Shown: positions 1,351 to 45,628, counted from the first letter of the stretch. The stretch: DNA of 64,000 nt from an uncultured Gammaproteobacteria bacterium (GCA_964460145.1 CAYWPH010000001.1:26579-90578), one strand, 5' to 3'. The notes: generated by a model not told the origin, from the letters alone. Made by a program: numbers and translations.

Positions 1351-1773
1351 ATGAAACAAACAAAATCAACAAAAATTAGCGAAGTAAAAAGAGATTGGCA
1401 TCTTGTCGATCTTAAAGGAAAAATACTAGGAAGAGTTGCATCGGATATAGCCTTACTTCTTATGGGAAAAAATAAACCAAATTTTGTAAGAAATTTGGAT
1501 ATGGGAGATTTTGTTGTGGTTATTAATGCGAAAGATTTTAAAGTAACAGGTAATAAAGAAAAGCTTAAAAAATATTACAGACACTCAGGTTACCCAGGCG
1601 GCTTTAAATCAGAAACTTTAGGAGATTTAAGACAAAGAAAACCGGAAGATGTTATAATCCATGCAGTTTCCGGAATGCTTCCTCAAAACAGGCTTAAAGA
1701 TAAAATGTTATCAAGATTACGTGTTTTTGGGGAAGAAGAACATACTTTTAAAGATAAATTTAATAAAGAATAA
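1351..1773 (+). CDS. rplM: 50S ribosomal protein L13
   Basis: Typical L13 N-terminus (WHLVDLKGKILGRVASDIALLLMGKNKP); gene order rplM-rpsI. Confidence 0.9.
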   Translation: MKQTKSTKISEVKRDWHLVDLKGKILGRVASDIALLLMGKNKPNFVRNLDMGDFVVVINAKDFKVTGNKEKLKKYYRHSGYPGGFKSETLGDLRQRKPEDVIIHAVSGMLPQNRLKDKMLSRLRVFGEEEHTFKDKFNKE

Positions 1774-1775
1774 AT

Positions 1776-2222
1776 ATGGTAAAAGATACTAAGAAAGATT
1801 TTATATTTACAATAGGAAGAAGAAAAGAATCAGTCGCAAGACTTAGGCTTTATACCAATTCAAATCCGGATTTAGTAATTGGTGAAGAAAAGCTTAAAAA
1901 AGGCGACGTAGTTGTCAATGGTAAAAGGGCACTAGATTATTTTAAAGGAATTGTTGCAAAAGTAAGATTTGAAGAGCCTCTTAAAATTACAAATAATTTG
2001 GGAAAATATATTTTATCTGTAAAAGTAGATGGTGGAGGACAAACAGGACAGCTTGAAGCATTTATCCATGCTCTATCTAGAGCCCTTGCAAGTCTGGATC
2101 CTAAAAATAGACAAATACTTAAAAAACAGGGTTTGCTTACAAGAGACGCAAGAGTAAGAGAAAGAAGGAAAGTTGGAATGGGTGGAAAAGCAAGAAGAAA
2201 GAGGCAATCTCCAAAGAGGTAA
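1776..2222 (+). CDS. rpsI: 30S ribosomal protein S9
   Basis: S9 C-terminal signature (GGGQTGQ...LTRDARVRERRKVGMGGKARRKRQSPKR). Confidence 0.9.
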   Translation: MVKDTKKDFIFTIGRRKESVARLRLYTNSNPDLVIGEEKLKKGDVVVNGKRALDYFKGIVAKVRFEEPLKITNNLGKYILSVKVDGGGQTGQLEAFIHALSRALASLDPKNRQILKKQGLLTRDARVRERRKVGMGGKARRKRQSPKR

Positions 2223-2226
2223 TCCT

Positions 2227-2769
2227 CTATAACATCTTCTGCTTAATGGTTTCAATAACCCAAGGAGCTAGATTTTCAAATAACCTTGATTTTTTATTTA
2301 ACAATTCCTGTTTTTTAACTAAAGAAAAACCATACGCAAAATCAAAGTTTGGAGTAGGCAGTTTTTTTACTTTACTAACTAATATTTCACAGACTTCGTG
2401 TTCTGTAAAAATGCTTTTTTTATCTTTTGCTTTGTAGTAAACAGCTCCTAAATTTTTAGGTGCATATAAAAGGTCTTTTTTTGTTATTCTCCATTCTCTT
2501 TCAAGGCATTCATATGTTGCTTCAAGTGTAGTTTGCAATTTACCATTAATATAGAGTTGGTGAGAGGATGATGTTATATCAAATACTCCATCAAAAGCAA
2601 CATGTTTTCTGTGTTGAATAATATAATAGTCTTTATAAATTAAAGCAACGGTTAATGCTTTATGGAGTATGCCTTTCCTGTGAGCTTCCCATTTTTCAAC
2701 CCTACCAATAACATTCCCTTTTTTATCAACCCTAGCTATAATTTGTTTTTGCTTATAATAACTATTCAT
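2227..2769 (-). CDS. Nudix-fold hydrolase, isopentenyl-diphosphate isomerase type 1-like
   Basis: Degenerate Nudix box (GKLQTTLEATYECLEREW). The motif FTEHEVCEIL resembles the IDI-1 NEVCPVF motif. It is divergent from the IPK gene inside an isoprenoid cluster. Confidence 0.45.
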   Translation of the reverse strand: MNSYYKQKQIIARVDKKGNVIGRVEKWEAHRKGILHKALTVALIYKDYYIIQHRKHVAFDGVFDITSSSHQLYINGKLQTTLEATYECLEREWRITKKDLLYAPKNLGAVYYKAKDKKSIFTEHEVCEILVSKVKKLPTPNFDFAYGFSLVKKQELLNKKSRLFENLAPWVIETIKQKML

Positions 2770-2850
2770 GATGGTTTGCTTTTAACTATAAGATATATTA
2801 TAATGCAAAAACCCATATAATCATAGTCCTAGCTTAATAAATATAAAATT

Positions 2851-3624
2851 ATGAAAGATGTTGTTTTAGTGAAATTAGGAGGATCAATTATTACGAACAA
2901 AAAGATTCCTTATTTCGCAAGAAAATCAGTTATAGCGCGTCTTGCAAGAGAACTTAAATCTTCAAGGGAACCAATCATTCTGGTACATGGAAGTGGTAGT
3001 TTTGGTCATACATCAGCCGTAAAATTTGGTGGCAAAAAAGGATACAAAAATGTAAAAGGAATTGCCAAAGTGGCATTTGATGCAATAACAATTAATCAGA
3101 TCGTAATGGAAATCTTAATAAAACAAGGATTACCGGTTGTCTCCTTGCGTCCTATGAGCATGATGCTTGCAAAATCAGGTAAAACTGAAGCTTTATTTCT
3201 TAAACCATTAGAAGAAGTACTTAAACAAGGACTAATACCTGTAGTTTTCGGAGATGTTATCTGGGACAAAAGCTGGAAAAGCACAATTTTTTCAGGCGAA
3301 ACTGTTTTAAGTAAAATTGCAGTTTATCTCAAAAGTAACGGTTTTAAAATAAAAAGAATAATTCAAGTAGGCGAAACTAATGGGGTATATGACCAAAATA
3401 AGAAAACAGTCCCCTTAATTACCAAAAAAAACTGGCCAAATGTTAAGCAATTTATTTTTAAATTAACTACAAATGATGTTACAGGAGGAATGTTGCATAA
3501 AATTGAAGATTCCTTGGAAATGGCTTCTAAGGGAATAGAAAGCATTTTAATAAATGGGAAACTAAAAAGAGAATTATCAAAAGCTCTTTTAGATAAAAAC
3601 GTAAAAGGAACGTTAATTAAATAA
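2851..3624 (+). CDS. ipk: Isopentenyl phosphate kinase (amino-acid kinase family)
   Basis: VKLGGSII...ILVHGSGSFGH and NDVTGGM match the IPK signatures (LKLGGS / VHGGGAFGH / DVTGGM). Confidence 0.8.
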   Translation: MKDVVLVKLGGSIITNKKIPYFARKSVIARLARELKSSREPIILVHGSGSFGHTSAVKFGGKKGYKNVKGIAKVAFDAITINQIVMEILIKQGLPVVSLRPMSMMLAKSGKTEALFLKPLEEVLKQGLIPVVFGDVIWDKSWKSTIFSGETVLSKIAVYLKSNGFKIKRIIQVGETNGVYDQNKKTVPLITKKNWPNVKQFIFKLTTNDVTGGMLHKIEDSLEMASKGIESILINGKLKRELSKALLDKNVKGTLIK

Positions 3625-6109: not shown

Positions 6110-6163
6110 AAGTAGAGTTGATTATAGCCAAAATGGCCCTAAATTGCAATTTAAATTGGATTG

Positions 6164-6234
6164 TCGGGGAGCCGGGAATTAAACCCGAACCCTACGCACC
6201 CCATGCGCAAATTCTATCGTTAAACTACTCCCCG
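6164..6234 (-). tRNA. tRNA-Pro (anticodon GGG), CCA not encoded
   Basis: The reverse complement reads CGGGGAG...CTCCCCG (7-bp acceptor stem with C1-G72, typical of Pro). Anticodon stem TGCGC/GCGTA carries the loop ATGGGGT, and the T-stem is TCGGG/CCCGG. Confidence 0.75.
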
Positions 6235-6287
6235 AAATGTTTTTTACACCTTGCATTATAACAAAAAGTTGTTACAATGAGAACGAA

Positions 6288-7370
6288 ATGGCACGTACTG
6301 CAAATCCAACCAAATCAATGCCAAATGGCCAAGCCCAAACCTCAGGAAAGCTTGAAGCAGTTAAGCTTGCGATGGAGCAAATTGAAAAACAATATGGTAG
6401 GGGATCTATCATGAGGTTTGGAGATATTGGGCAAAAACTCGATATTTCAGTTATCTCCACAGGCTGTCTTCCCTTAGATTTAGCACTAGGAGTAGGTGGA
6501 GTGCCAAGAGGCAGAATCATTGAAATTTACGGTCCAGAAGCAAGCGGCAAAACTACAGTTTGTCTTTCAATTATTGCCCAAGCTCAAAAACATGGAGGAA
6601 TCGCAGCCTTTATAGACGCAGAACACGCTCTTGATCCCTTATGGGCTGCAAGAATTGGGATAAAACTTGATGATTTATTAATTTCCCAACCAGATACAGG
6701 AGAGCAAGCTTTGGAAATTGCGGAAAGCTTAATTAGAAGTGGCGGAGTTGACGTTTTAGTAATAGATTCAGTGGCAGCCTTGGTTCCACGAGCTGAGATT
6801 GAGGGTGAAATGGGAGATGCAGTAATGGGTCTTCAGGCAAGGCTTATGTCGCAGGCTTTAAGAAAATTAACCGCTGTTATCTCCAAATCCAAAACAGTAG
6901 TTATTTTTACAAATCAGCTAAGGCAAAAAATCGGAGTAATGTTTGGAAATCCCGAAACAACAACAGGAGGACTTGCTTTAAAATTTTATTCCTCGGTTAG
7001 AATTGATATTCGGAAAATAGAAAGCTTAAAAGACGGAGATAGGGTAATTGGATCAAGGCATAGAGCAAAAATAGTTAAAAATAAAGTATCGTCTCCTTTT
7101 AGAATTGCAGAGTTTGATGTATTTGGAGACACGGGAATTTCCAGGGAGGGCGGAATAATGGACGTTGGAGTTGATATGGAAATAATTAACAAATCAGGAG
7201 CATTCTTTAGATATGGTGAATTAATGCTTGGCCAGGGAAAACAAGCATCAATTTTATATTTGAAAGAAAAACCAGATGTTGCCAAAAAAATTGTTGAGCA
7301 GATAATGACTAAAAGTAAAACCGTGCCTACTCCCGTAGAAGTCGGAGTAGAAGAAGCAAAAGAAGAATAA
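6288..7370 (+). CDS. recA: Recombinase RecA
   Basis: Walker [10 protein letters not shown] and the RecA core ([51 protein letters not shown]). The likely start is MARTANP at 6288; the longer ORF from 6237 would overlap the tRNA. Confidence 0.9.
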
Positions 7371-7380
7371 CCCTTTTTTA

Positions 7381-7857
7381 ATGGAAACTATCGAAAATCT
7401 TCTCAATAAATCCTTTAAATTCCTTTCCTATAGACCAAGAAGTGAAAAAGAAGTAAGAGATTATTTGCTCAAGAAAAAAGCTGATGATTTAACTCTTGAG
7501 AAAATTATTAAAAGACTAAAAGAGCACAATTTCATTAATGATTCAAATTTTACCAAATGGTGGATTGAACAAAGAACAAAATTTAGGCCTAAGGCAGTAA
7601 GGATAATTAAGTTAGAGTTACTTAGAAAGGGAATTGCTAAAGATTTAATAGAAGAAATATTACAAGATAAAACAGTCGAGACAGAAACCGACCTAGATAA
7701 AGCCAGAAAACTTGCAATAAAAAGAATTGAAAGATATAAAAACGAAGAACCTCAAAAAAAATATGAAAAAATGGTCAGATTTTTAGCCTCTAAAGGGTTT
7801 GATTGGGACACAGTTAAAGAAGTTATTGACCAATTAATTCCCAAAAGGTATAATTAG
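7381..7857 (+). CDS. recX: RecA regulator RecX
   Basis: About 158-aa helical repeat protein directly after recA (SYRPRSEKEVRDYLLKK). Confidence 0.75.
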   Translation: METIENLLNKSFKFLSYRPRSEKEVRDYLLKKKADDLTLEKIIKRLKEHNFINDSNFTKWWIEQRTKFRPKAVRIIKLELLRKGIAKDLIEEILQDKTVETETDLDKARKLAIKRIERYKNEEPQKKYEKMVRFLASKGFDWDTVKEVIDQLIPKRYN

Positions 7858-7972
7858 CTCTAAGCAATAGAGCAAGGGCAAAGTTGTTATATGAAAAGTA
7901 CAGAGTTTCCCTTTTCCATATTCCACTTAAAAAGAGCTTAAATAGCTCTTGCTTCTTTATTGTTTAAAAATT

Positions 7973-9241
7973 ATGGCACAAGATAATCAGGATTTAATTC
8001 AATTAGAAAAAAAACTCCTTGAAAGACAGGAGAAATTGGATAATGAAAAAGAACAGTTAGAAAAAGAAAAAGAAAAGCTTCAGAAAACAAAAGACAATCT
8101 TGAAGAGCTTTTGGAAAAAGTTTCCTCTCTTACCGCTCAAGAAGCCAAAAGAGAGCTTCTTGAGCTTATTGAGCAAAAAGAAGTAGCAACTGTTGCAAAA
8201 ATAATCAGGGAAAGAGAAGAAGAAGCTTTAAAAACCGCAGATAAAAAAGCTCAGGAAATTTTGGTTGAAAGTATGAGGCACGGGGTTTTAGACTATATAG
8301 CAGAATATACTGTTTCTGTTGTAAAGATTACGGATGAAGATGTAAAGGGAAGAATAATCGGAAAAGAAGGAAGAAATATTAGAGCTTTTGAGCAGGCAAC
8401 CGGAGTAGACGTAGACTTAGACGAAGAGGGAATTATCAGGCTTTCATCTTTTGATCAGGTAAGAAGAGAAGTTGCAAGAAGAGCTTTAGAAAAATTAATT
8501 AAAGATACAAGAATTCAGCCTTTTAGAATTGAAGAGATAGTCTCTCAGACAAAGGCAGAAGTTGAGAAAATAATGTTTGAGGAAGGTGAGCGTTTAGCTC
8601 ACGAAGCAGGGGTATATAACCTTTCAAAAGAAATATTATCAGTTTTGGGAAGATTTAAATTTAGAACCTCATATGGACAAAATCTTATCGTCCATACACT
8701 CGAAGATACAAAAATTGGAGTTCATATTGCAGCAGAAATTGGAGCTGATGTAAATATCGTAAAACTAGGGTGTCTTTTCCATGATATCGGAAAGGTAATT
8801 GAAGGAGAGGGAAGTCACGTAAATTTAGGAGTAGAGTTTTTGAAAAAACACAATATTCCAGAAGCTATTATAAACTGCGTTGCAGAGCATCATGAAGATA
8901 AACCATTTTCTTCAGTTGAGTCAGTAATTGTTCATATTGCCGATGCAATTTCTGGAGCAAGACCAGGAGCAAGATACGAAGACATAGGAGAGTATGCAAA
9001 AAGACTTACTCAAATGGAAGAAATTGCCAAAAAATTTGATGGAGTACAAGATGCCTATGCATTTGAAGCAGGAAGGGAACTTCGAGTAATTATTAACCCA
9101 GGAGCTTTAAGCGATGAAGAAACTACAGTTTTAGCAGCAAAAATAAGAGATGAAGTAAGTAAAGTCTTAGCAGTCCCGGGAGAAATAAAAGTTACAGCAA
9201 TTAGAGAATTTAGGGCAGTTTCCTCAGAGTTTTCTTCGTAA
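7973..9241 (+). CDS. rny: Ribonuclease Y (KH + HD domains); C-terminal 8 residues are encoded by repeat R1
   Basis: KH domain IIGKEGRNIRAFEQATGVDVDL and HD domain LFHDIGK; N-terminal coiled coil. The start may instead be at 7949. Confidence 0.85.
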   Translation: MAQDNQDLIQLEKKLLERQEKLDNEKEQLEKEKEKLQKTKDNLEELLEKVSSLTAQEAKRELLELIEQKEVATVAKIIREREEEALKTADKKAQEILVESMRHGVLDYIAEYTVSVVKITDEDVKGRIIGKEGRNIRAFEQATGVDVDLDEEGIIRLSSFDQVRREVARRALEKLIKDTRIQPFRIEEIVSQTKAEVEKIMFEEGERLAHEAGVYNLSKEILSVLGRFKFRTSYGQNLIVHTLEDTKIGVHIAAEIGADVNIVKLGCLFHDIGKVIEGEGSHVNLGVEFLKKHNIPEAIINCVAEHHEDKPFSSVESVIVHIADAISGARPGARYEDIGEYAKRLTQMEEIAKKFDGVQDAYAFEAGRELRVIINPGALSDEETTVLAAKIRDEVSKVLAVPGEIKVTAIREFRAVSSEFSS

Positions 9242-9263
9242 CTTTCTGTGTTATAATTTCTGC
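9219..9263 (+). promoter_or_regulatory. Direct repeat R1 carrying extended -10 promoter (TGtTATAAT, 9249-9257), 6 nt before ATG: leaderless transcript
   Basis: TTTCCTCAGAGTTTTCTTCGTAACTTTCTGTGTTATAATTTCTGC is about 80% identical to R2 (9738-9785) and R3 (10309-10350). Confidence 0.65.
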
Positions 9264-9737
9264 ATGGTTATATTTATTAACGGTTCAATAAATGCAGGAA
9301 AAACTACCGTAGCAGATATTTTAGTTAAAAAGATTCCTAATACTGCCCACGTTGATATAGATATGCTGCGATTTTTTATAACATGGATGCCACTTGATGA
9401 ATCAATTCCCATTAATTTAGAAAATGCCGCCCTAGTAATAAAAAACTTTGTAGAAAAAGGTTTAAATGTTGTGGTAACTTATCCTATTTCTCAAAAAAAC
9501 TACGAGTTTTTAATGGAGAAACTTAAAGATTTAAAGGACAAAATTTATTTTTTTACTTTAAATCCTCAAATGCAAACTATTCTTAACAGGGGAGTAATGT
9601 CGGATGCAGAAAGAGAAAGAGTAAGGTATCATTACAAAATTGAAATTAATAAACCCACGTTTGGAGTTATAATTGATAGCACGGGTAAGACTCCTGAGCA
9701 AACTGCGCAAGAGATGCTAAAATTATTAAGAAAGTAA
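9264..9737 (+). CDS. P-loop kinase, chloramphenicol-phosphotransferase-like (CPT/AAA_33 family)
   Basis: N-terminal IFINGSINAGKTT resembles the CPT IILNGGSSAGKS P-loop; size about 157 aa. Confidence 0.55.
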   Translation: MVIFINGSINAGKTTVADILVKKIPNTAHVDIDMLRFFITWMPLDESIPINLENAALVIKNFVEKGLNVVVTYPISQKNYEFLMEKLKDLKDKIYFFTLNPQMQTILNRGVMSDAERERVRYHYKIEINKPTFGVIIDSTGKTPEQTAQEMLKLLRK

Positions 9738-9785
9738 TTTCCTCAGAATTTTCCTCGTAATTTAAACTTCTGTTATAATCTTGGT
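9738..9785 (+). promoter_or_regulatory. Direct repeat R2 with extended -10 promoter (TGTTATAAT 9771-9779)
   Basis: TTTCCTCAGAATTTTCCTCGTAATTTAAACTTCTGTTATAATCTTGGT; 6 nt from -10 to ATG 9786. Confidence 0.65.
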
Positions 9786-10328
9786 ATGGATTTGACGAAA
9801 GTAATTATAAAAACAGACAGATTAAAACTTGTTCCAACTTCTTTGGTATACGCTTCTGAAATGTTTAAAGAGTTTACGGAGGAGATAACTACTTTTATGT
9901 ATCCAAAAGCTGCAAAGGAAATTAGGGAAACAGAAGATTTTGTCAGTTCCTCAATTCAAAAAATGAAAAACGGAGAAGAGCTACAAGTTGTAATTTTAAA
10001 TAAAATAACAGGAGAATTTTTAGGTCATGGAGGAATAAGCAAGTTAAAATCTGAAACACCGGAGTTAGGTATCTGGATTAAAAAGAGAGCTCACGGAAAT
10101 AAGTATGGGAGAGAGGCAGTAAAAGGATTAAAGAAATGGATAGATGATAATATCAATTATAAGTACGTAATATACCCAGTTGATAAAAGAAATACATCGA
10201 GTAGGAAAATAGCAGAATCTTTGGGTGGAGTTGTAGAAGATGAATATAAAAAAGAAAGTATGTCAGGTAATATACTTGATGAAGTTGAATATAGAGTTTA
10301 TCCTAAATCTCTCAAATTTTCCTCGTAA
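9786..10328 (+). CDS. GNAT N-acetyltransferase, RimL/RimJ-like
   Basis: N-terminal TDRLKLVP motif typical of the RimJ/RimL subfamily. The C-terminal tail KSLKFSS is encoded by repeat R3. Confidence 0.7.
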   Translation: MDLTKVIIKTDRLKLVPTSLVYASEMFKEFTEEITTFMYPKAAKEIRETEDFVSSSIQKMKNGEELQVVILNKITGEFLGHGGISKLKSETPELGIWIKKRAHGNKYGREAVKGLKKWIDDNINYKYVIYPVDKRNTSSRKIAESLGGVVEDEYKKESMSGNILDEVEYRVYPKSLKFSS

Positions 10329-10350
10329 ATACTTGTGTTATAATTTCTGC
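10309..10350 (+). promoter_or_regulatory. Direct repeat R3 with extended -10 promoter (TGTTATAAT 10336-10344)
   Basis: TCTCAAATTTTCCTCGTAAATACTTGTGTTATAATTTCTGC; 6 nt to ATG 10351. Confidence 0.65.
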
Positions 10351-10788
10351 ATGAGTAATCGTATCTGGGATCCGGAAGATAAATATAAAGCCGCAGTTAT
10401 AAAAGAATATAGTCATTGGGTTGTTGAGGTTAGCTTTAGACAGCATACTTTTGGCTGTTTTATTATTTTTGCAAAAAGAGATATAGAGAAAATTTCTGAG
10501 TTAAAAAGCGAAGAGCTTATTGAGTTAAAAGATGTAATGTCAGAAATTGAAAATGTATTAAAGACTATACCAGAGTTTAATCCCGACAGATTTAACTATC
10601 TACAAATGGGAAATGCATTGCATCATTTGCATTTTCACTTAATTCCAAGATATGAAACGCAGAGAAATTTTGATGGTAAGGAATGGAATGATGAAGCATT
10701 TGGACATCCTCCTGTTTGGAGTAAAACAGAAGTATCTAGAGACTTAGTTATAAAAATAAAAGAGACTATCCAAAAATATTTAAAATAA
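10351..10788 (+). CDS. HIT-family (histidine triad) nucleotide hydrolase
   Basis: C-terminal HHLHFHLIPR is a HxHxHxx HIT motif. The start is taken at ATG 10351, not the listed 10240, because of the promoter-ATG architecture. Confidence 0.7.
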   Translation: MSNRIWDPEDKYKAAVIKEYSHWVVEVSFRQHTFGCFIIFAKRDIEKISELKSEELIELKDVMSEIENVLKTIPEFNPDRFNYLQMGNALHHLHFHLIPRYETQRNFDGKEWNDEAFGHPPVWSKTEVSRDLVIKIKETIQKYLK

Positions 10789-10873
10789 TATTTTCTTCAA
10801 TTTTCCTCTTGACAAACATCTTAATTACATTGTATTGTAAACCTAAATCAAAAAGGCAGGGAGGTGAAATAAT

Positions 10874-11146
10874 TTGACAAAAAAAGACTTAGTAGAGTTA
10901 GTAGCAAAGAAAGGAAACTTTACCAATAAAGCAGCTAGAGATTCTGTTTCTGCATTCTTAAACGGTATTAGAGATTCGTTAAAAAGAGGAGAGAAAGTCG
11001 TAATTACCGGATTCGGAACTTTTTCTATTAGAAAAAGAGCAGCTAGGCCAGGTAGAAATCCAAAGACTGGAGAAAAAATTACTATAGAGGCAAGAAAAGC
11101 TCCTGGATTTACTCCTGGAAAAACACTTAAAAAGGCAGTAAGATAA
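10874..11146 (+). CDS. hup: DNA-binding protein HU
   Basis: HU signature (GFGTFSIRKRAARPGRNPKTGEKI). TTG start preceded by GGAGGTG, with -35 TTGACA upstream. Confidence 0.9.
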   Translation: MTKKDLVELVAKKGNFTNKAARDSVSAFLNGIRDSLKRGEKVVITGFGTFSIRKRAARPGRNPKTGEKITIEARKAPGFTPGKTLKKAVR

Positions 11147-12618: not shown

Positions 12619-15522
12619 TTAAATCGAATTTAGAAGTGTTGAGCAAAGCATTTTATATTCACAATTTTTACAAAATATTGATTTTGAACATACGAAACTA
12701 CTTTGAGAGATTTCTTTAACTTTTTCTAAAATATATTGTTTAGTTTTATCTAGTTGTAATTGATTTCTTTGAGTGGAAAGTTTTGTATTTGTTTCTATGT
12801 AATGCAAAGATAGGATTAGATTTTGAGGATCAATATTAAAAGGTTTTTCTAAAATTTCTTTTGCAGCCAGAGCATAAAAACTTAACTGTTTATTGTCAAT
12901 TAAATCCTTTTGAGTTAACATATTTTGTCCGGTTTTATAATCAATTATCTCTAATTTTCCACTCTTTAGTTTATCAATTCTATCTATTCTTCCCGTAACT
13001 CTTAGATTATCAATATTGAATTGAAACGGTTTTTCTAAAGCAATCGGTAAGTTGTCTTTATTAAAATTATCTCTTAAGTATTTAAAGATATTTTTTTTGG
13101 CTTTTATTAAAGCTTTTCTCTCATGTTCTTTGCTTGAATATCCTTCGTTTATCCAGTCCAATTTAAAAAGCTTTATTGAATCTTTGATATTCATTTTTTC
13201 TCCATTGATCCAGCTTTGATAGAAATCTCTCAAAACGAGATGAATACTTGTTCCAAAACTTTGTGCCGCAGTAGGAATTGTTGGAATTTTTAAGATAAAT
13301 TTAAGTTTATAATGAAGGGGACATATTTCAAATGCTTGAATATGAGAATATGAAATATAATCTATTGGAATATTTTTAGAGCTAGCTTTTTCTTCAACCA
13401 CCTCTTTTTGTGACCATTCGATTAAAGATAATTGAGTTTCTTTATTTTTAATCTCTTTATTTAATATTTTTTCAACTTCTTTTTGGCCTAAAGCTTCATA
13501 TATAAAAGGGGAAAGTTTTCTATCCCTTTTTTCCTCACTATAATAGTTTGCTGCAGAAAAAAATAACATATCTCTTGTCCTGGTCATTCCTACATAAAAA
13601 AGTCTTCTCTCTTCTTGTAAATGATAATCTCCAGTTGGCAGTATTTCTTTAATAAGTTTTTCTGGAATTGGTATTTTTTCTCTTCTTTCTCTGGTAGGAA
13701 ATCTTTGAGAAACAAGGTTAACCAAAAATACAACAGGAAACTCAAGTCCTTTGCTTGAATGAACTGTTAAAATGTTTACTGCGTTATTTTCTGACCAGTC
13801 AGTGTCAGAAGCCAAAGGACTTTCTCCCATTTGCATTGATAAATCTATCCAGTCAACTACTTCATAAACACTTGCAGTTTTATGCTGCGTCTCATAGGTT
13901 TTTAGTTTATCAAAAAGCTTTGCAATATTTTTTGCTATTAATTCTTCTTTTAAAGTTTTATATTCCAAAATGCTTTTAATTAAGCCTGAGTCTTCCAGAA
14001 AATAATATAAAATTTGTCCTGCTGTTTGTTTTGGTATAAGTTTTAGGTGCTTTTTTATCATTTTAGTCAGTGTTTTAAATTTTTCTTTTGATTTTTTCTT
14101 AACAACTAATTCATCTATGTGTTCTAGGGTTTGAAAAAGAGAATAATTTTTTCTTTTCATAAAATTTAAAAGCACTGCTAAATCCACGGCATCAAAATCA
14201 AAAACTGACATATTTAAAACCCTGTATAAAGAACTTGTATCTTCAAAGCTATACAACACTTTAAGATAGGAGATTAAATCTTTTATTTCTTCCTGATGAA
14301 AAAGTCTTCCGGGACCTAGAAATTGATAAGGAATCTTTGCTCGTTGTAAACTTCTGGTAAAACTATCTGCATGACCATTTGCTCTTACCAGGATTGCAAA
14401 ATCTTTGTAATCATATTTTTTACCATCGTCATAAATTTGTTTAATTTTACTTACAACAGTTTCTGCTTCATCTTCAACTCTTTGTTTATAAATCAATTCT
14501 GTTTTTGCTCCTTCAATATTTCTTACAGAAATTAGCCTTTTATTTATTTTTTGTTTTATCTCGAGTCGGTCTGGATTATTGTTTTGAATAAGATTATATG
14601 ATTTATCCAATATTTCCTTTGTAGATCTATAGTTGTTAACAAGAGAAATTATTTTTGCTTTGGGAAATCTTTTTTTGAATTGGAGTATGTTGGAAATTGA
14701 ACTTCCTCTAAATCTATAAATTGATTGGTCATCATCTCCAACAACATTAATATTTTGTCTTTTACCAGCTAACAATATTACAAGTTGGTTTTGAGCAAAA
14801 TTGGTATCTTGGAATTCATCTACTAAAATATATTTAAACATTTCCTGATATTGTTTTAGAATATTTTTTCTAGTTCTAAAAAGTTTTAGAGTGTTAGAAA
14901 TTAAATCTGAAAAATCCATTACACTTTCTTTTGCTTTTAGATCTTCGTAGGTTTTAAAGGCATGGGAGAGCTCAATATATTTTTTATATTCATCCTTGTC
15001 TTTTTTAATTTCTTTATTTGTTTTTACAAATTCAATATAATCATTTGGCAAAATATCTTCATCTTTTAGTCTTGAGAAGTGTTGCAATATTGCCTCTAAA
15101 AATTTATTTGGATTACCAAGGGGACGGAAATAATTAAGTTTTAGTTTGAAAAGGTTTTCTTTTAAAAACAGAACACTTTCTGCTTCTGTCATTAATTTAT
15201 ACGATGGGTTAAGTCCGATGTGAATACTTTCAGATCTTAAAACTCGATCGCAAAAAGAATGGAAGGTTGATATCCACATTTGAGTATATCCATATGGCAT
15301 TGCCTGATCAACTCTCTCTTCCATTTCAAATGCGGCTTTTTCCGTAAAGGTTAATGCAAGAATTTGGGAAGGGTTAATATTTTTCTTTAAAACAAGATGT
15401 TTTATTCTCTCAGTTATTACAGTAGTTTTGCCGGTACCTGCTCCTGCAATAATTAGTAATGGACCATCACCAAACAAAATAGCACTTAGCTGATTTTTAT
15501 CCAAATTAATACCAGCCTTCAT
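12619..15522 (-). CDS. UvrD/PcrA-like SF1 helicase fused to a C-terminal PD-(D/E)xK nuclease with a 4-Cys Fe-S cluster (AddB/Cas4-like)
   Basis: Walker A AGAGTGKTT and motif II DEFQDTN. The C-terminus has RIDRID...EIIDYKTG plus CPLHY...FCKNCEYKMLC, a C-x2-C-x5-C pattern. Confidence 0.8.
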   Translation of the reverse strand: MKAGINLDKNQLSAILFGDGPLLIIAGAGTGKTTVITERIKHLVLKKNINPSQILALTFTEKAAFEMEERVDQAMPYGYTQMWISTFHSFCDRVLRSESIHIGLNPSYKLMTEAESVLFLKENLFKLKLNYFRPLGNPNKFLEAILQHFSRLKDEDILPNDYIEFVKTNKEIKKDKDEYKKYIELSHAFKTYEDLKAKESVMDFSDLISNTLKLFRTRKNILKQYQEMFKYILVDEFQDTNFAQNQLVILLAGKRQNINVVGDDDQSIYRFRGSSISNILQFKKRFPKAKIISLVNNYRSTKEILDKSYNLIQNNNPDRLEIKQKINKRLISVRNIEGAKTELIYKQRVEDEAETVVSKIKQIYDDGKKYDYKDFAILVRANGHADSFTRSLQRAKIPYQFLGPGRLFHQEEIKDLISYLKVLYSFEDTSSLYRVLNMSVFDFDAVDLAVLLNFMKRKNYSLFQTLEHIDELVVKKKSKEKFKTLTKMIKKHLKLIPKQTAGQILYYFLEDSGLIKSILEYKTLKEELIAKNIAKLFDKLKTYETQHKTASVYEVVDWIDLSMQMGESPLASDTDWSENNAVNILTVHSSKGLEFPVVFLVNLVSQRFPTRERREKIPIPEKLIKEILPTGDYHLQEERRLFYVGMTRTRDMLFFSAANYYSEEKRDRKLSPFIYEALGQKEVEKILNKEIKNKETQLSLIEWSQKEVVEEKASSKNIPIDYISYSHIQAFEICPLHYKLKFILKIPTIPTAAQSFGTSIHLVLRDFYQSWINGEKMNIKDSIKLFKLDWINEGYSSKEHERKALIKAKKNIFKYLRDNFNKDNLPIALEKPFQFNIDNLRVTGRIDRIDKLKSGKLEIIDYKTGQNMLTQKDLIDNKQLSFYALAAKEILEKPFNIDPQNLILSLHYIETNTKLSTQRNQLQLDKTKQYILEKVKEISQSSFVCSKSIFCKNCEYKMLCSTLLNSI

Positions 15523-44559: not shown

Positions 44560-44876
44560 GATATGAAATGGCCGAATTTATTAAAATCTACTTTATTTTT
44601 TACGTCAAATTCTACTCCCTCTTTTTCAAGCATCTGTTTTTGAATACCTGGGCCTCCAAAAGCGTATCCAGATGATATTTCTCCTTTTGAATTAATAACT
44701 CTGTGACAGGGAATGTTTTTAGGATCTTTATTTGCATGCAGGGCAAATCCTACAACTCTTGGGTCAATTGATAAAAGTCTTGAAATTGCTCCATAAGTTG
44801 TAACTTTTCCCCTTGGAACCGATGCCACTAAATAGTAAACTTTATCAAACGTATTCATTTTATAAGAATATACCAA
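44556..44876 (-). CDS. Methylated-DNA-protein-cysteine methyltransferase DNA-binding domain protein (MGMT/Ogt-like)
   Basis: PCHRV active-site motif (NIPCHRVINSKGEIS); about 106 aa. Confidence 0.75.
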   Translation of the reverse strand: MVYSYKMNTFDKVYYLVASVPRGKVTTYGAISRLLSIDPRVVGFALHANKDPKNIPCHRVINSKGEISSGYAFGGPGIQKQMLEKEGVEFDVKNKVDFNKFGHFIS

Positions 44877-45628
44877 AAAATTATTGCAGCAACAATCCTA
44901 TAAATTCCAAAGGAAATAAAGCTATGATTTTGCAAAAATCTCAAAAAAAGTTTTACTACAATAACTGCTACTATAAATGATCCGATAAATCCTGTTGCCA
45001 GAATTGACCATTCATAAGTGTTAAATGAAAAATTGCTTTTTAACATATTAAGTGTAGTTGCGCCAAGCATTGTCGGGACTGCCAGTAAAAATGAAAATTC
45101 TGCAGCTGCTTTTCTTTTGGTTCCCAAAAAAAGTGCAGCAACAATCGTTGAGGCAGACCTTGATACTCCCGGAATAACGGCAATAGATTGGAAAATTCCT
45201 ATTATAAATGCATTCTTGAGAGTAATTTTTTCTATAGAATCAACATGATGATCTTTTTCTTTATACAAAAGCTCAAGGATAATGAGTAAAATTCCTCCGA
45301 TAAGTAAAGCCAAAAGAGTAATATAAAGGTTTCCTAAAAGAAATGATTTGATAAACTTAAAAAGCACAAAGCCTACAATAGCTGTTGGTATAAAGGCCGC
45401 TAAAACCCTTTTCCAAATTTCTTTGCTTTGTATAAAACTTTTAAAATATAAAGCAACAATTGAAAGTATTGCTCCAAGCTGAATGACTATTTCAAAGTCT
45501 TTTACAAAATCCGTTTGTCTTATTTTTAAAATTTCCAAGGTGAGTATCAGGTGTCCTGTTGAGGATATGGGTAAAAATTCTGTTATTCCTTCAACAATAG
45601 AAAGAATAATTGCGGCGAGATAGTCCAT
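44855..45628 (-). CDS. uppP: Undecaprenyl-diphosphatase (BacA/UppP)
   Basis: LSIVEGITEFLPISSTGHLIL signature; 8 TMs. Confidence 0.85.
   Translation of the reverse strand: MDYLAAIILSIVEGITEFLPISSTGHLILTLEILKIRQTDFVKDFEIVIQLGAILSIVALYFKSFIQSKEIWKRVLAAFIPTAIVGFVLFKFIKSFLLGNLYITLLALLIGGILLIILELLYKEKDHHVDSIEKITLKNAFIIGIFQSIAVIPGVSRSASTIVAALFLGTKRKAAAEFSFLLAVPTMLGATTLNMLKSNFSFNTYEWSILATGFIGSFIVAVIVVKLFLRFLQNHSFISFGIYRIVAAIIFWYILIK

Follow-up and report, generated by a model that had tools for sequence, protein, structure and literature searches.

The interval between rny (RNase Y) and hup (HU protein) in a 64-kb stretch of genomic DNA, hereafter the window, is probably an additive hotspot for accessory genes, in which single-gene modules are added and removed by RecA-type or short-homology recombination between copies of the rny tail. 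In the window, three small genes lie in this interval: kin, encoding a P-loop kinase-like protein, a GNAT acetyltransferase gene and a HIT hydrolase gene. The window (GC content 33%) comes from a groundwater genome; near-identical contigs and 80 orthologous rny loci carry the name Candidatus Levyibacteriota (candidate phyla radiation, CPR/Patescibacteria). We compared it with loci and contigs of relatives, which are labelled L001 and so on.

Each of the three genes is preceded by a unit of about 45 bp, TTTCCTCAGARTTTTCYTC-GTAA-N7-10-TGTTATAAT-N6-ATG (R1, R2 and R3 in Table 1), and a partial copy (10790-10814, within R4) precedes hup. Gene calls and Pfam searches confirmed the gene content and coordinates that an earlier note on this DNA had given for the interval, and a repeat search recovered the same three units and the partial fourth copy. 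R1 paired with R3 over 37 nt (86% identity) and with R2 over 26 nt (88%); the final 20 nt before the ATG are identical in R1 and R3 (TGTGTTATAATTTCTGCATG). The 23-mer TTTCCTCAGAATTTTCCTCGTAA had 2 matches at ≤3 mismatches, against 0 in 100 shuffles. When the tails of all window open reading frames (ORFs) of at least 100 aa were compared, that of rny alone had a downstream copy at ≤2 mismatches, and only 2% of random 22-mers had one with even ≤5 mismatches. The unit also gives the preceding gene its stop codon, as the note had read from the sequence: rny (...SSEFSS*) and the GNAT gene (...SLKFSS*) both run into the repeat, and in R1 the GTAA at 9238-9241 finishes a Ser codon and supplies the stop TAA. 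Alignment with MAFFT gave a common cassette layout of RTAA, TGnTATAAT, 6 nt, ATG, one gene and a tail copy ending ...TTTTCCTC, with RTAA completing the Ser codon and the TAA stop of rny or the GNAT gene.

The order recA-recX-rny-[x]-hup is kept in 80 genomes, and in about 60 of the 80 Levyibacteriota species representatives no gene intervenes between rny and hup. In relatives with such an empty site, rny ends ...GAATTTTCCTCTTGA, with its stop codon inside the hup -35 box TTGACA. The closest insertion-free relatives read ...GTTTCC(A/T)CAGA(A/G)TTTTCCTCTTGA, and the rny TGA lies within TTGACA in L008, L010, L074, L111-117, L119, L121-124 and L129. The ancestral end of rny is ...GAA TTT TCC TCT TGA, with this TGA inside the -35 box. 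The hup promoter itself, TTGACA-N18-TATTGT, is kept in nearly every one of the ~60 inspected junctions in which rny and hup are direct neighbours; in the window the -35 box is at 10809-10814 and, after an 18-nt spacer, the -10 box is at 10833-10838. Promoter and leader together (10809-10873 in the window, ~60 related loci) share TTGACA-N18-TATTGT, TAAnCTAAT, GGAGGTGA and usually a TTG start, a conservation across the phylum far above that of the surrounding intergenic DNA.

That rny ends in the same way in empty-site relatives shows that the left half of the unit (TTTCCTCAGARTTTTCYTC) is rny coding sequence, the tail V-S-S-E-F-S-S. What looks like a partial fourth copy is the original rny tail, displaced and still joined to the -35 box of hup. 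The window and L007/L008 are homologous up to 9237-9241 and again from 10791-10799, which places the inserted block at 9238-10808. In L130 the rny tail differs (GTCGCCACCGAATTCCCTTCCTAA), and an exact 18-nt copy of that tail (CGCCACCGAATTCCCTTC) plus ATAA stands after the first cassette, and behind it the next gene has a TTGACA-N17-TATTAT-N6-ATG promoter; no such match was obtained with any of 300 control 30-mers. We applied the longest-exact-match test of tail copies to all insert-bearing loci; it was decisive for L130 only and uninformative in AT-rich sequence, and an 11-nt copy of the local rny tail flanking a 1.6-kb insert in L041 is suggestive only. The covariation with the rny tail in L130 indicates that the repeat originates from the rny tail of the same locus and was not imported. 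Members of the GNAT family usually end ...EYRIYP plus 0-2 residues; the GNATs confirmed just upstream of hup run on into the remnant of the tail, ending ...KSS* or ...KFSS* (L011, L133 and the window) or ...KSP* (L130); in L011 and L133 the stop is the TGA within TTGACA.

Exactly at ...TTTTCCTC|TTGACA, relatives hold from 0 to 4 genes. The slot is empty in L008, L111-117, L119, L121-124 and L129 (RNase Y identity to the window, 91-94%), contains HIT only in L126-128 (97%) and L118 (91%), begins with kin-GNAT in L125 (94%) and carries a gene for a CYTH-domain protein in L007 (94%). The arrangement kin-GNAT-HIT belongs to the window's own species (L001-6 and L093; 97.8-99.8% nucleotide identity, RNase Y 98-100%). 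Kin occurs alone in L135, as a 66% ortholog, and GNAT alone in L133 (RNase Y ~79%); in L011 (77%) a different kinase gene, kin2 (AAA_33), is translationally coupled to GNAT, and L130 (~78%) has genes for a DUF2268 protein and a 2-hydroxyacid dehydrogenase followed by kin2 and GNAT. L118 and L119 share 98.6% identity in 2.3 kb of upstream sequence and 100% downstream, and what sets them apart is a 486-bp HIT cassette, inserted in L118 between ...GAATTTTCCTC and TTGACA and flanked by a 10-bp direct repeat (AATTTTCCTC). The earlier note had seen in the repeats no regulatory coincidence but cassette capture at a conserved junction, and had suggested comparing the rny-hup interval among relatives. 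That idea is largely right: cassette number and content do vary at the same site, and an identical, invariant arrangement was not seen. Judged by these alleles, the slot is a real, recombination-prone and strain-variable cassette hotspot.

Hybrid alleles locate the exchanges. The rny end of L126 reads ...TTTTCTTC|ATAACTTTCTGTGTTATAATTTCTGC and leads straight into HIT, so that through the shared 20-nt promoter the left part of R1 is linked to the gene that stands behind R3 in the window; a crossover between R1 and R3 would give exactly this arrangement. L002 has a three-cassette array in which kin and GNAT are of the window type (2 differences in 1.1 kb) and HIT is the L126-type allele (37 differences, 10346-10764), with the switch point inside R3. 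The upstream region and rny of L125 are ~100% identical to those of the empty-site L121 until the last ~70 nt; its cassettes are 98-100% identical in nucleotide sequence to those of the window, against only ~90% for rny. The tail copy before GNAT in L125 (TTTCTTCCGAATTTTCCTCGTAA) matches the L133 rny tail (TTTCTTCGGAATTTTCCTCGTAA) at 22/23 positions and its own rny tail at 19/23, as would be expected if an allele consisting of rny tail and GNAT had been stacked behind kin. Taken together, the hybrids L126, L002 and L125 show that cassettes are gained, lost and exchanged as modules, with breakpoints in the repeats. Around this locus strain differences are strongly clustered, with runs of single-nucleotide polymorphisms alternating with identical tracts (L093 at window 7813-8611, L126 and L002), which indicates frequent homologous recombination among co-occurring strains.

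Every window cassette has its own TGnTATAAT-N6-ATG. The note's observation that the -10 box lies exactly 6 nt from each ATG (in R1, 9252-9257 before the ATG at 9264) extends to independent cassettes: TATAAT-N6-ATG is exact at 11 junctions with differing spacer sequences, comprising the three window cassettes and eight others (L011, L072, L079, L118, L130 twice, L133 and L135). At about 10 of 63 gene starts in the window the ATG follows a -10 hexamer at a distance of 5-8 nt, in most cases exactly 6, and the right half of the unit is thus a normal promoter type for this genome. Strong Shine-Dalgarno sequences precede few window genes, hup among them, and none precedes the cassette genes. Leaderless mRNAs from extended -10 promoters occur in Actinobacteria, Deinococcus and others. 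The cassettes resemble such units in having TGnTATAAT 6 nt upstream of the ATG and no Shine-Dalgarno sequence; on these sequence features their mRNAs are likely leaderless, with starts that we infer at the ATGs, and leaderless initiation may be common in the phylum. A search of the literature found no description of leaderless mRNAs in Levyibacteriota. Between rny and hup there is no terminator, so read-through transcription is also possible. In the MAFFT alignment there was a hint that the cassette promoters are homologous to the hup promoter, too weak to claim. Public gene calls give HIT as 169 aa, starting within the 3' end of GNAT (window 10240-10788; L001 2419-2928); the orthologs (145 aa in L126, 149 aa in L118) and the TATAAT-N6-ATG unit indicate that the shorter, non-overlapping start at 10351 is to be favoured.

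Table 1. Features of the rny-hup locus and other gene starts of the window (positions in the window)
Feature	Position	Strand	Description
recA	6237-7370		
recX	7381-7857		
rny	7973-9241	+	RNase Y; Pfam RNase_Y_N, KH and HD domains
A1	9219-9241	+	proximal repeat copy, last 7 rny codons, VSSEFSS*
R1	9219-9263	+	rny tail TTTCCTCAGAGTTTTCTTC (9219-9237), GTAA (9238-9241), then TGTGTTATAAT-TTCTGC
kin cassette	9238-9756	+	promoter, kin, distal tail copy TTTCCTCAGAATTTTCCTC (9738-9756)
kin	9264-9737	+	P-loop kinase-like protein, 157 aa; CPT match below the Pfam cut-off
R2	9738-9785	+	tail copy, GTAA, TTTAAACTTC, TGTTATAAT-CTTGGT, then GNAT ATG
GNAT cassette	9757-10324	+	promoter and GNAT; ORF runs into tail copy A3, TCTCTCAAATTTTCCTC (10308-10324)
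GNAT	9786-10328	+	acetyltransferase, 180 aa; Pfam Acetyltransf_3 PF13302, E = 1.2e-17
R3	10309-10350	+	tail copy, GTAA (GNAT stop 10326-10328), ATACT, TGTGTTATAAT-TTCTGC, then HIT ATG
HIT cassette	10325-10808	+	promoter, HIT, degenerate distal tail copy ATTTTCTTCAATTTTCCTC (10790-10808)
HIT	10351-10788	+	hydrolase, 145 aa; HIT family, E = 3.3e-7
R4	10790-10838	+	displaced ancestral rny tail joined to hup promoter; matches the intact junction of empty-site genomes
hup	10874-11146	+	HU protein; TTG start, strong Shine-Dalgarno GGGAGGTGA; conserved right flank of the hotspot
AI-2E-type permease	after hup		
Start with -10 box near ATG	11188		
Start with -10 box near ATG	12619-15522	-	helicase; UvrD-helicase Pfam families in orthologous gene calls
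Start with -10 box near ATG	35204		
Start with -10 box near ATG	44855-45628	-	
Start with -10 box near ATG	53936		

We propose that modules enter a site at which, in the ancestral state, the end of the rny reading frame overlaps the promoter of hup. A module would be placed exactly between ...TTTTCCTC and TTGACA, where its first bases, RTAA, would rebuild the stop of rny or of the preceding cassette gene; the module would bring its own promoter of the extended -10 type, 6 nt ahead of the ATG of a probably leaderless mRNA, and its distal copy of the rny tail would keep the native sequence ahead of the hup -35 box. For both rny and hup to stay functional, an insertion there would have to duplicate the overlap of rny tail and hup promoter. 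The resulting direct repeats of 10-23 bp and the similar promoters would then serve as portable homology, and recombination between repeats and alleles from related strains, after DNA uptake, would stack, delete and swap cassettes. The comparisons above show the ancestral overlap, the exact junctions, the direct repeats, the polymorphism in cassette presence and content and the hybrid alleles; the recombination machinery is what we infer from them. The proposed recombination fits with natural competence, which has been demonstrated in CPR bacteria (PMC10633639), and with horizontal gene transfer mostly among Patescibacteria (PMC12455944).

Several points weigh against this account. The data do not explain how the first insertion duplicates the tail, and RecA-dependent integration would have 10-23 bp to work with, a short length for it. 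A site-specific enzyme, too, would be expected to reuse exactly one junction, and in the close clade every cassette has the same orientation and starts with RTAA, which either selection or site-specificity can explain. Metagenome contigs can be chimeric. Moreover, distant lineages have rny|hup insertions without a tail copy (L012, L013, L052, L054, L056, L061, L068, L072 and L076-80), so that more than one process must feed the site; inserts in distant lineages, in either orientation, encode HAD, SPFH and ASCH proteins, a Kelch-repeat protein, and a deaminase with an AAA_28 protein. The rny|hup site is thus a general hotspot, whereas cassettes bounded by tail copies are a format specific to the window's clade.

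A dedicated site-specific system is the likeliest alternative: a recombinase encoded in trans would use the rny tail (...GAATTTTCCTC) as its attachment site and move circular single-gene cassettes. Such an enzyme would account for the identical junction in independent cassettes and lineages, for the direct repeats flanking every cassette, for tandem arrays of varying length made of co-oriented one-gene cassettes, and for filled and empty sites that differ by precisely one cassette and one repeat. However, a tyrosine-recombinase box-II pattern (HxLRH ... LGHxxxxTxxY), a crude regular expression, matched none of the window ORFs of at least 120 aa (64 kb covered) and none of the ORFs of at least 150 aa in ~110 related loci, about 4-6 kb on each side of rny, and the gene calls of L111-L133 contained no recombinase Pfam family, Phage_integrase included. 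The repeats resemble neither inverted repeats nor hairpins: when R1-R3 were folded as DNA on both strands, the energies were -0.1 to -3.9 kcal/mol (z +0.6 to -1.9) and no hairpin emerged. Their length varies between 10 and 23 bp and, in L130, their sequence tracks the local rny tail. The core GAATTYYCCTYC is not enriched elsewhere in the window, and a metagenome scan for the full junction (TTTTCYTCGTAA-N6-13-TGTTATAAT) found it only in the window's own species (L093 and L099, three copies each), the remaining 22 matches lying in unrelated contexts; as a mobile junction, the 45-bp unit is therefore not widespread. Viral contigs gave 10 DNA matches to the tail core in unrelated coding contexts, none of them beside rny, hup or a cassette gene (tblastn), and no match to the HIT protein; L136, the one viral-contig locus that was inspected closely, is a phage head module. 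These scans give no evidence for an origin from a phage attP. Because no integrase-like ORF, repeat folding, core enrichment or phage carrier was found in these searches, the repeat length varies and the junction is limited to one species, we favour short-homology recombination; because the junction is so exact, a trans-acting recombinase stays a live rival, though we consider it unlikely. In its boldest form the locus could be an undescribed integron-like platform for gene capture in CPR bacteria, with the 3' tail of rny as attachment site and ~0.5-kb single-gene cassettes whose leaderless promoters come with a rebuilt rny stop, run by an unrecognised trans-acting recombinase or by host recombination alone; we regard this formulation, too, as doubtful.

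The earlier note had likened the locus to integron-type arrays, and this part of its interpretation was not borne out: no intI or other integrase-like ORF was found in the window or the ~110 related loci, the repeats form no attC hairpin and derive from the local rny tail, and the cassettes have their own promoters rather than a common promoter (Pc). RYYYAAC/GTTRRRY cores are absent in R2 and R3, and an Rfam search of the whole window gave no matches. The motif TTTCCTCAGAAT...GTAA loosely resembles the dif site of Firmicutes such as B. subtilis, an 11-6-11 imperfect palindrome at the terminus, and dif or an integrative mobile element exploiting Xer (IMEX) was considered on that likeness; it was rejected, as the arms are direct and not inverted and there is no terminus-type skew switch. 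GC skew follows the gene strand, with no replichore switch at 9-11 kb.

The interval might instead be a fixed operon whose ~45-bp units are duplicated internal promoters or regulatory modules with no role in mobility. In favour of this, the 8-10 contigs from the window's own species (97.8-99.8% identity) all have one gene order, no terminator separates rny from hup, and the right half of the unit is a good extended -10 promoter; yet sister lineages with 91-97% RNase Y identity hold other contents at the same junction, the left half is demonstrably the coding tail of rny and not a regulatory motif, and hybrid alleles break inside the repeats, so that a fixed operon is already contradicted by the allele series and is improbable. 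Still less probable is an assembly artefact, in which the variable alleles would be chimeric metagenome contigs joined via the repeats. Repeats and co-occurring strains are exactly where assemblers mis-join, and L125 and L002 are short contigs. Against this, the arrangements recur in independent assemblies and sources (NCBI metagenome-assembled genomes, JGI, ENA and Logan), HIT-only being seen in three contigs, each from a different sample, and empty sites being numerous; the rny tail of L125 matches neither L121 nor the window; and k = 141, given in several contig names, exceeds the length of the repeats (≤45 bp).

The three genes had also been proposed to form an island for antibiotic resistance or self-protection, with GNAT and HIT acting on aminoacyl-nucleotide antibiotics and the kinase on chloramphenicol. 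There is a precedent in microcin C resistance, which is conferred by MccE/RimL-type GNATs and MccH-type HIT hydrolases (PMC7157772), and the window GNAT falls in Pfam Acetyltransf_3, like RimL and MccE. The MccH clade, however, needs ExxxxxHxHxK(xx), with the third His replaced by Lys and an upstream Glu (PMC7157772). The window HIT reads ...QMGNALHHLHFHLIP, with the canonical motif HLHFHLI (HxHxH) in which the third His is kept; the residue six before the first His of the triad is Met, and the upstream Glu is absent. We therefore rejected assignment of HIT to the MccH phosphoramidases; its best PDB matches are uncharacterised HIT proteins. GNAT belongs to a 525-member Patescibacteria family, and it matched only two uncharacterised GNATs in the PDB at E ≤ 1e-3, no MccE or RimL structure among them, and no NCBIfam model. 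As for the kinase, the P-loop kinase-like character described in the earlier note stood, whereas the resemblance to chloramphenicol phosphotransferase (CPT) reached only a sub-threshold match (PF07931, 20.9 bits; gathering cut-off 22); its best PDB match had E = 0.063, and its best NCBIfam match, the Gar/GrdA gentamicin-resistance family, scored 31.5 bits against a cut-off of 170. PADLOC gave no relevant match.

A kinase gene coupled to GNAT, as kin2 is in L011 and L130, would suit a joint function. GNAT, HIT and kin, however, each occur alone in relatives (L133, L118 and L135), and such independent occurrence leaves a concerted resistance module unsupported. A resistance island is thus improbable, and the label is not warranted for these genes from sequence alone, although single genes among them may have detoxifying roles. 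The predicted functions are generic: kinase-like, acetyltransferase, and nucleotide hydrolase or transferase. Kin has a 99% match (P0241) on the L125 contig, from its own species; the next nearest relative is that of L135 (66%) and the rest are at 53-64%, those with a source name coming from Parcubacteria, Gracilibacteria and other CPR groups. Kin looks horizontally acquired.

Among known systems, the closest concept to the preferred reading is the additive flexible genomic island (defined in PMC5217437) or core-flanked hotspot. The window locus shares with it a fixed site between core genes, gain and loss among strains, and cassettes that are more alike between strains than the flanking genes are. 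It differs in that the modules are ~0.5 kb, each with one gene and its own promoter, in that the repeats copy the last codons of a protein gene and not the 3' end of a tRNA, in having no integrase or mobile-element gene found near the locus (in the 64 kb seen of this genome), and in its reduced-genome CPR host. With integron arrays, including CALINs, which are attC clusters without integrase, it has in common tandem, co-oriented, mostly single-gene cassettes, a recurring short element, one site and variable content; in contrast, its repeats lack the R''/R' cores as well as a hairpin, no intI was found, and the promoter-bearing cassettes do not depend on a Pc, the repeat coming from the upstream gene and co-varying with it. 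Integrative elements that target the 3' ends of genes likewise leave direct repeats of the target end, re-create the stop and accrete in tandem at the same site. The window cassettes, unlike these, encode no integrase (only kin, GNAT, HIT, CYTH and similar proteins) and are single genes, and their 10-23-bp repeat is a duplication that preserves an overlapping downstream promoter. A literature search for rny-linked integration sites or integron-like arrays in Patescibacteria returned nothing relevant, and the locus, with its tiny promoter-bearing cassettes, coding-tail repeats, CPR host and no visible recombinase, appears not to have been described in the searchable literature.

Other elements were observed around these junctions. 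Relatives also vary at a second slot, bounded by uppS (prenyltransferase) and recA; the window (6110-6236) has no gene there, whereas the slot holds an HNH_repeat gene in L111/L113/L120 (2344-2841 / 1349-1846), GNAT and ornithine cyclodeaminase-like genes in L116/L117 (189-1609 / 1707-3127) and a 167-aa ORF in L129 (1678-2181). In several Levyibacteriota a GC-rich element of ~70-80 nt with inverted ends (CCGCC...TTACCGTTCGCCTTTTCAGAACTATCCGTTCACGGCTCACGGAGCG...GGCGG) is present in the 5' untranslated region of hup or in the rny-hup spacer (L130 4590-4665; L135 ~960-1090 and ~1170-1245; also L016, L051, L069 and L086). It contrasts with the ~33% GC of the window, is not in the window's rny-hup interval, and could be similar to a miniature inverted-repeat transposable element or a structured RNA. 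Between rny and the kin promoter of L135 (~405-435) there is a perfect 26-nt palindrome, CCCCAAGTATACATGTATACTTGGGG, a candidate terminator-like or protein-binding site that is not found in the window. In the rny-hup spacer of a distant member (L081, 1740-1880), ~4 tandem copies of a ~42-nt unit, CTCGCTAAGCTTCGTAATTCTTGCGCTACGCTAAAGAACCA, lie beside a run of N.

CPR genomes are tiny, and little is known of how they gain accessory genes; the rny-hup locus gives a sequence-level view of this process. One junction, at which a gene end overlaps a promoter, repeatedly takes in promoter-bearing single-gene modules, and the tail copy would let strains add, drop and swap them, an integron-like outcome apparently without integron machinery. 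The locus may serve as a marker for strain-level variation in groundwater Levyibacteriota and, with its natural set of empty and filled alleles, for the study of recombination mechanisms. It also offers comparative evidence that leaderless expression may be common in the phylum.

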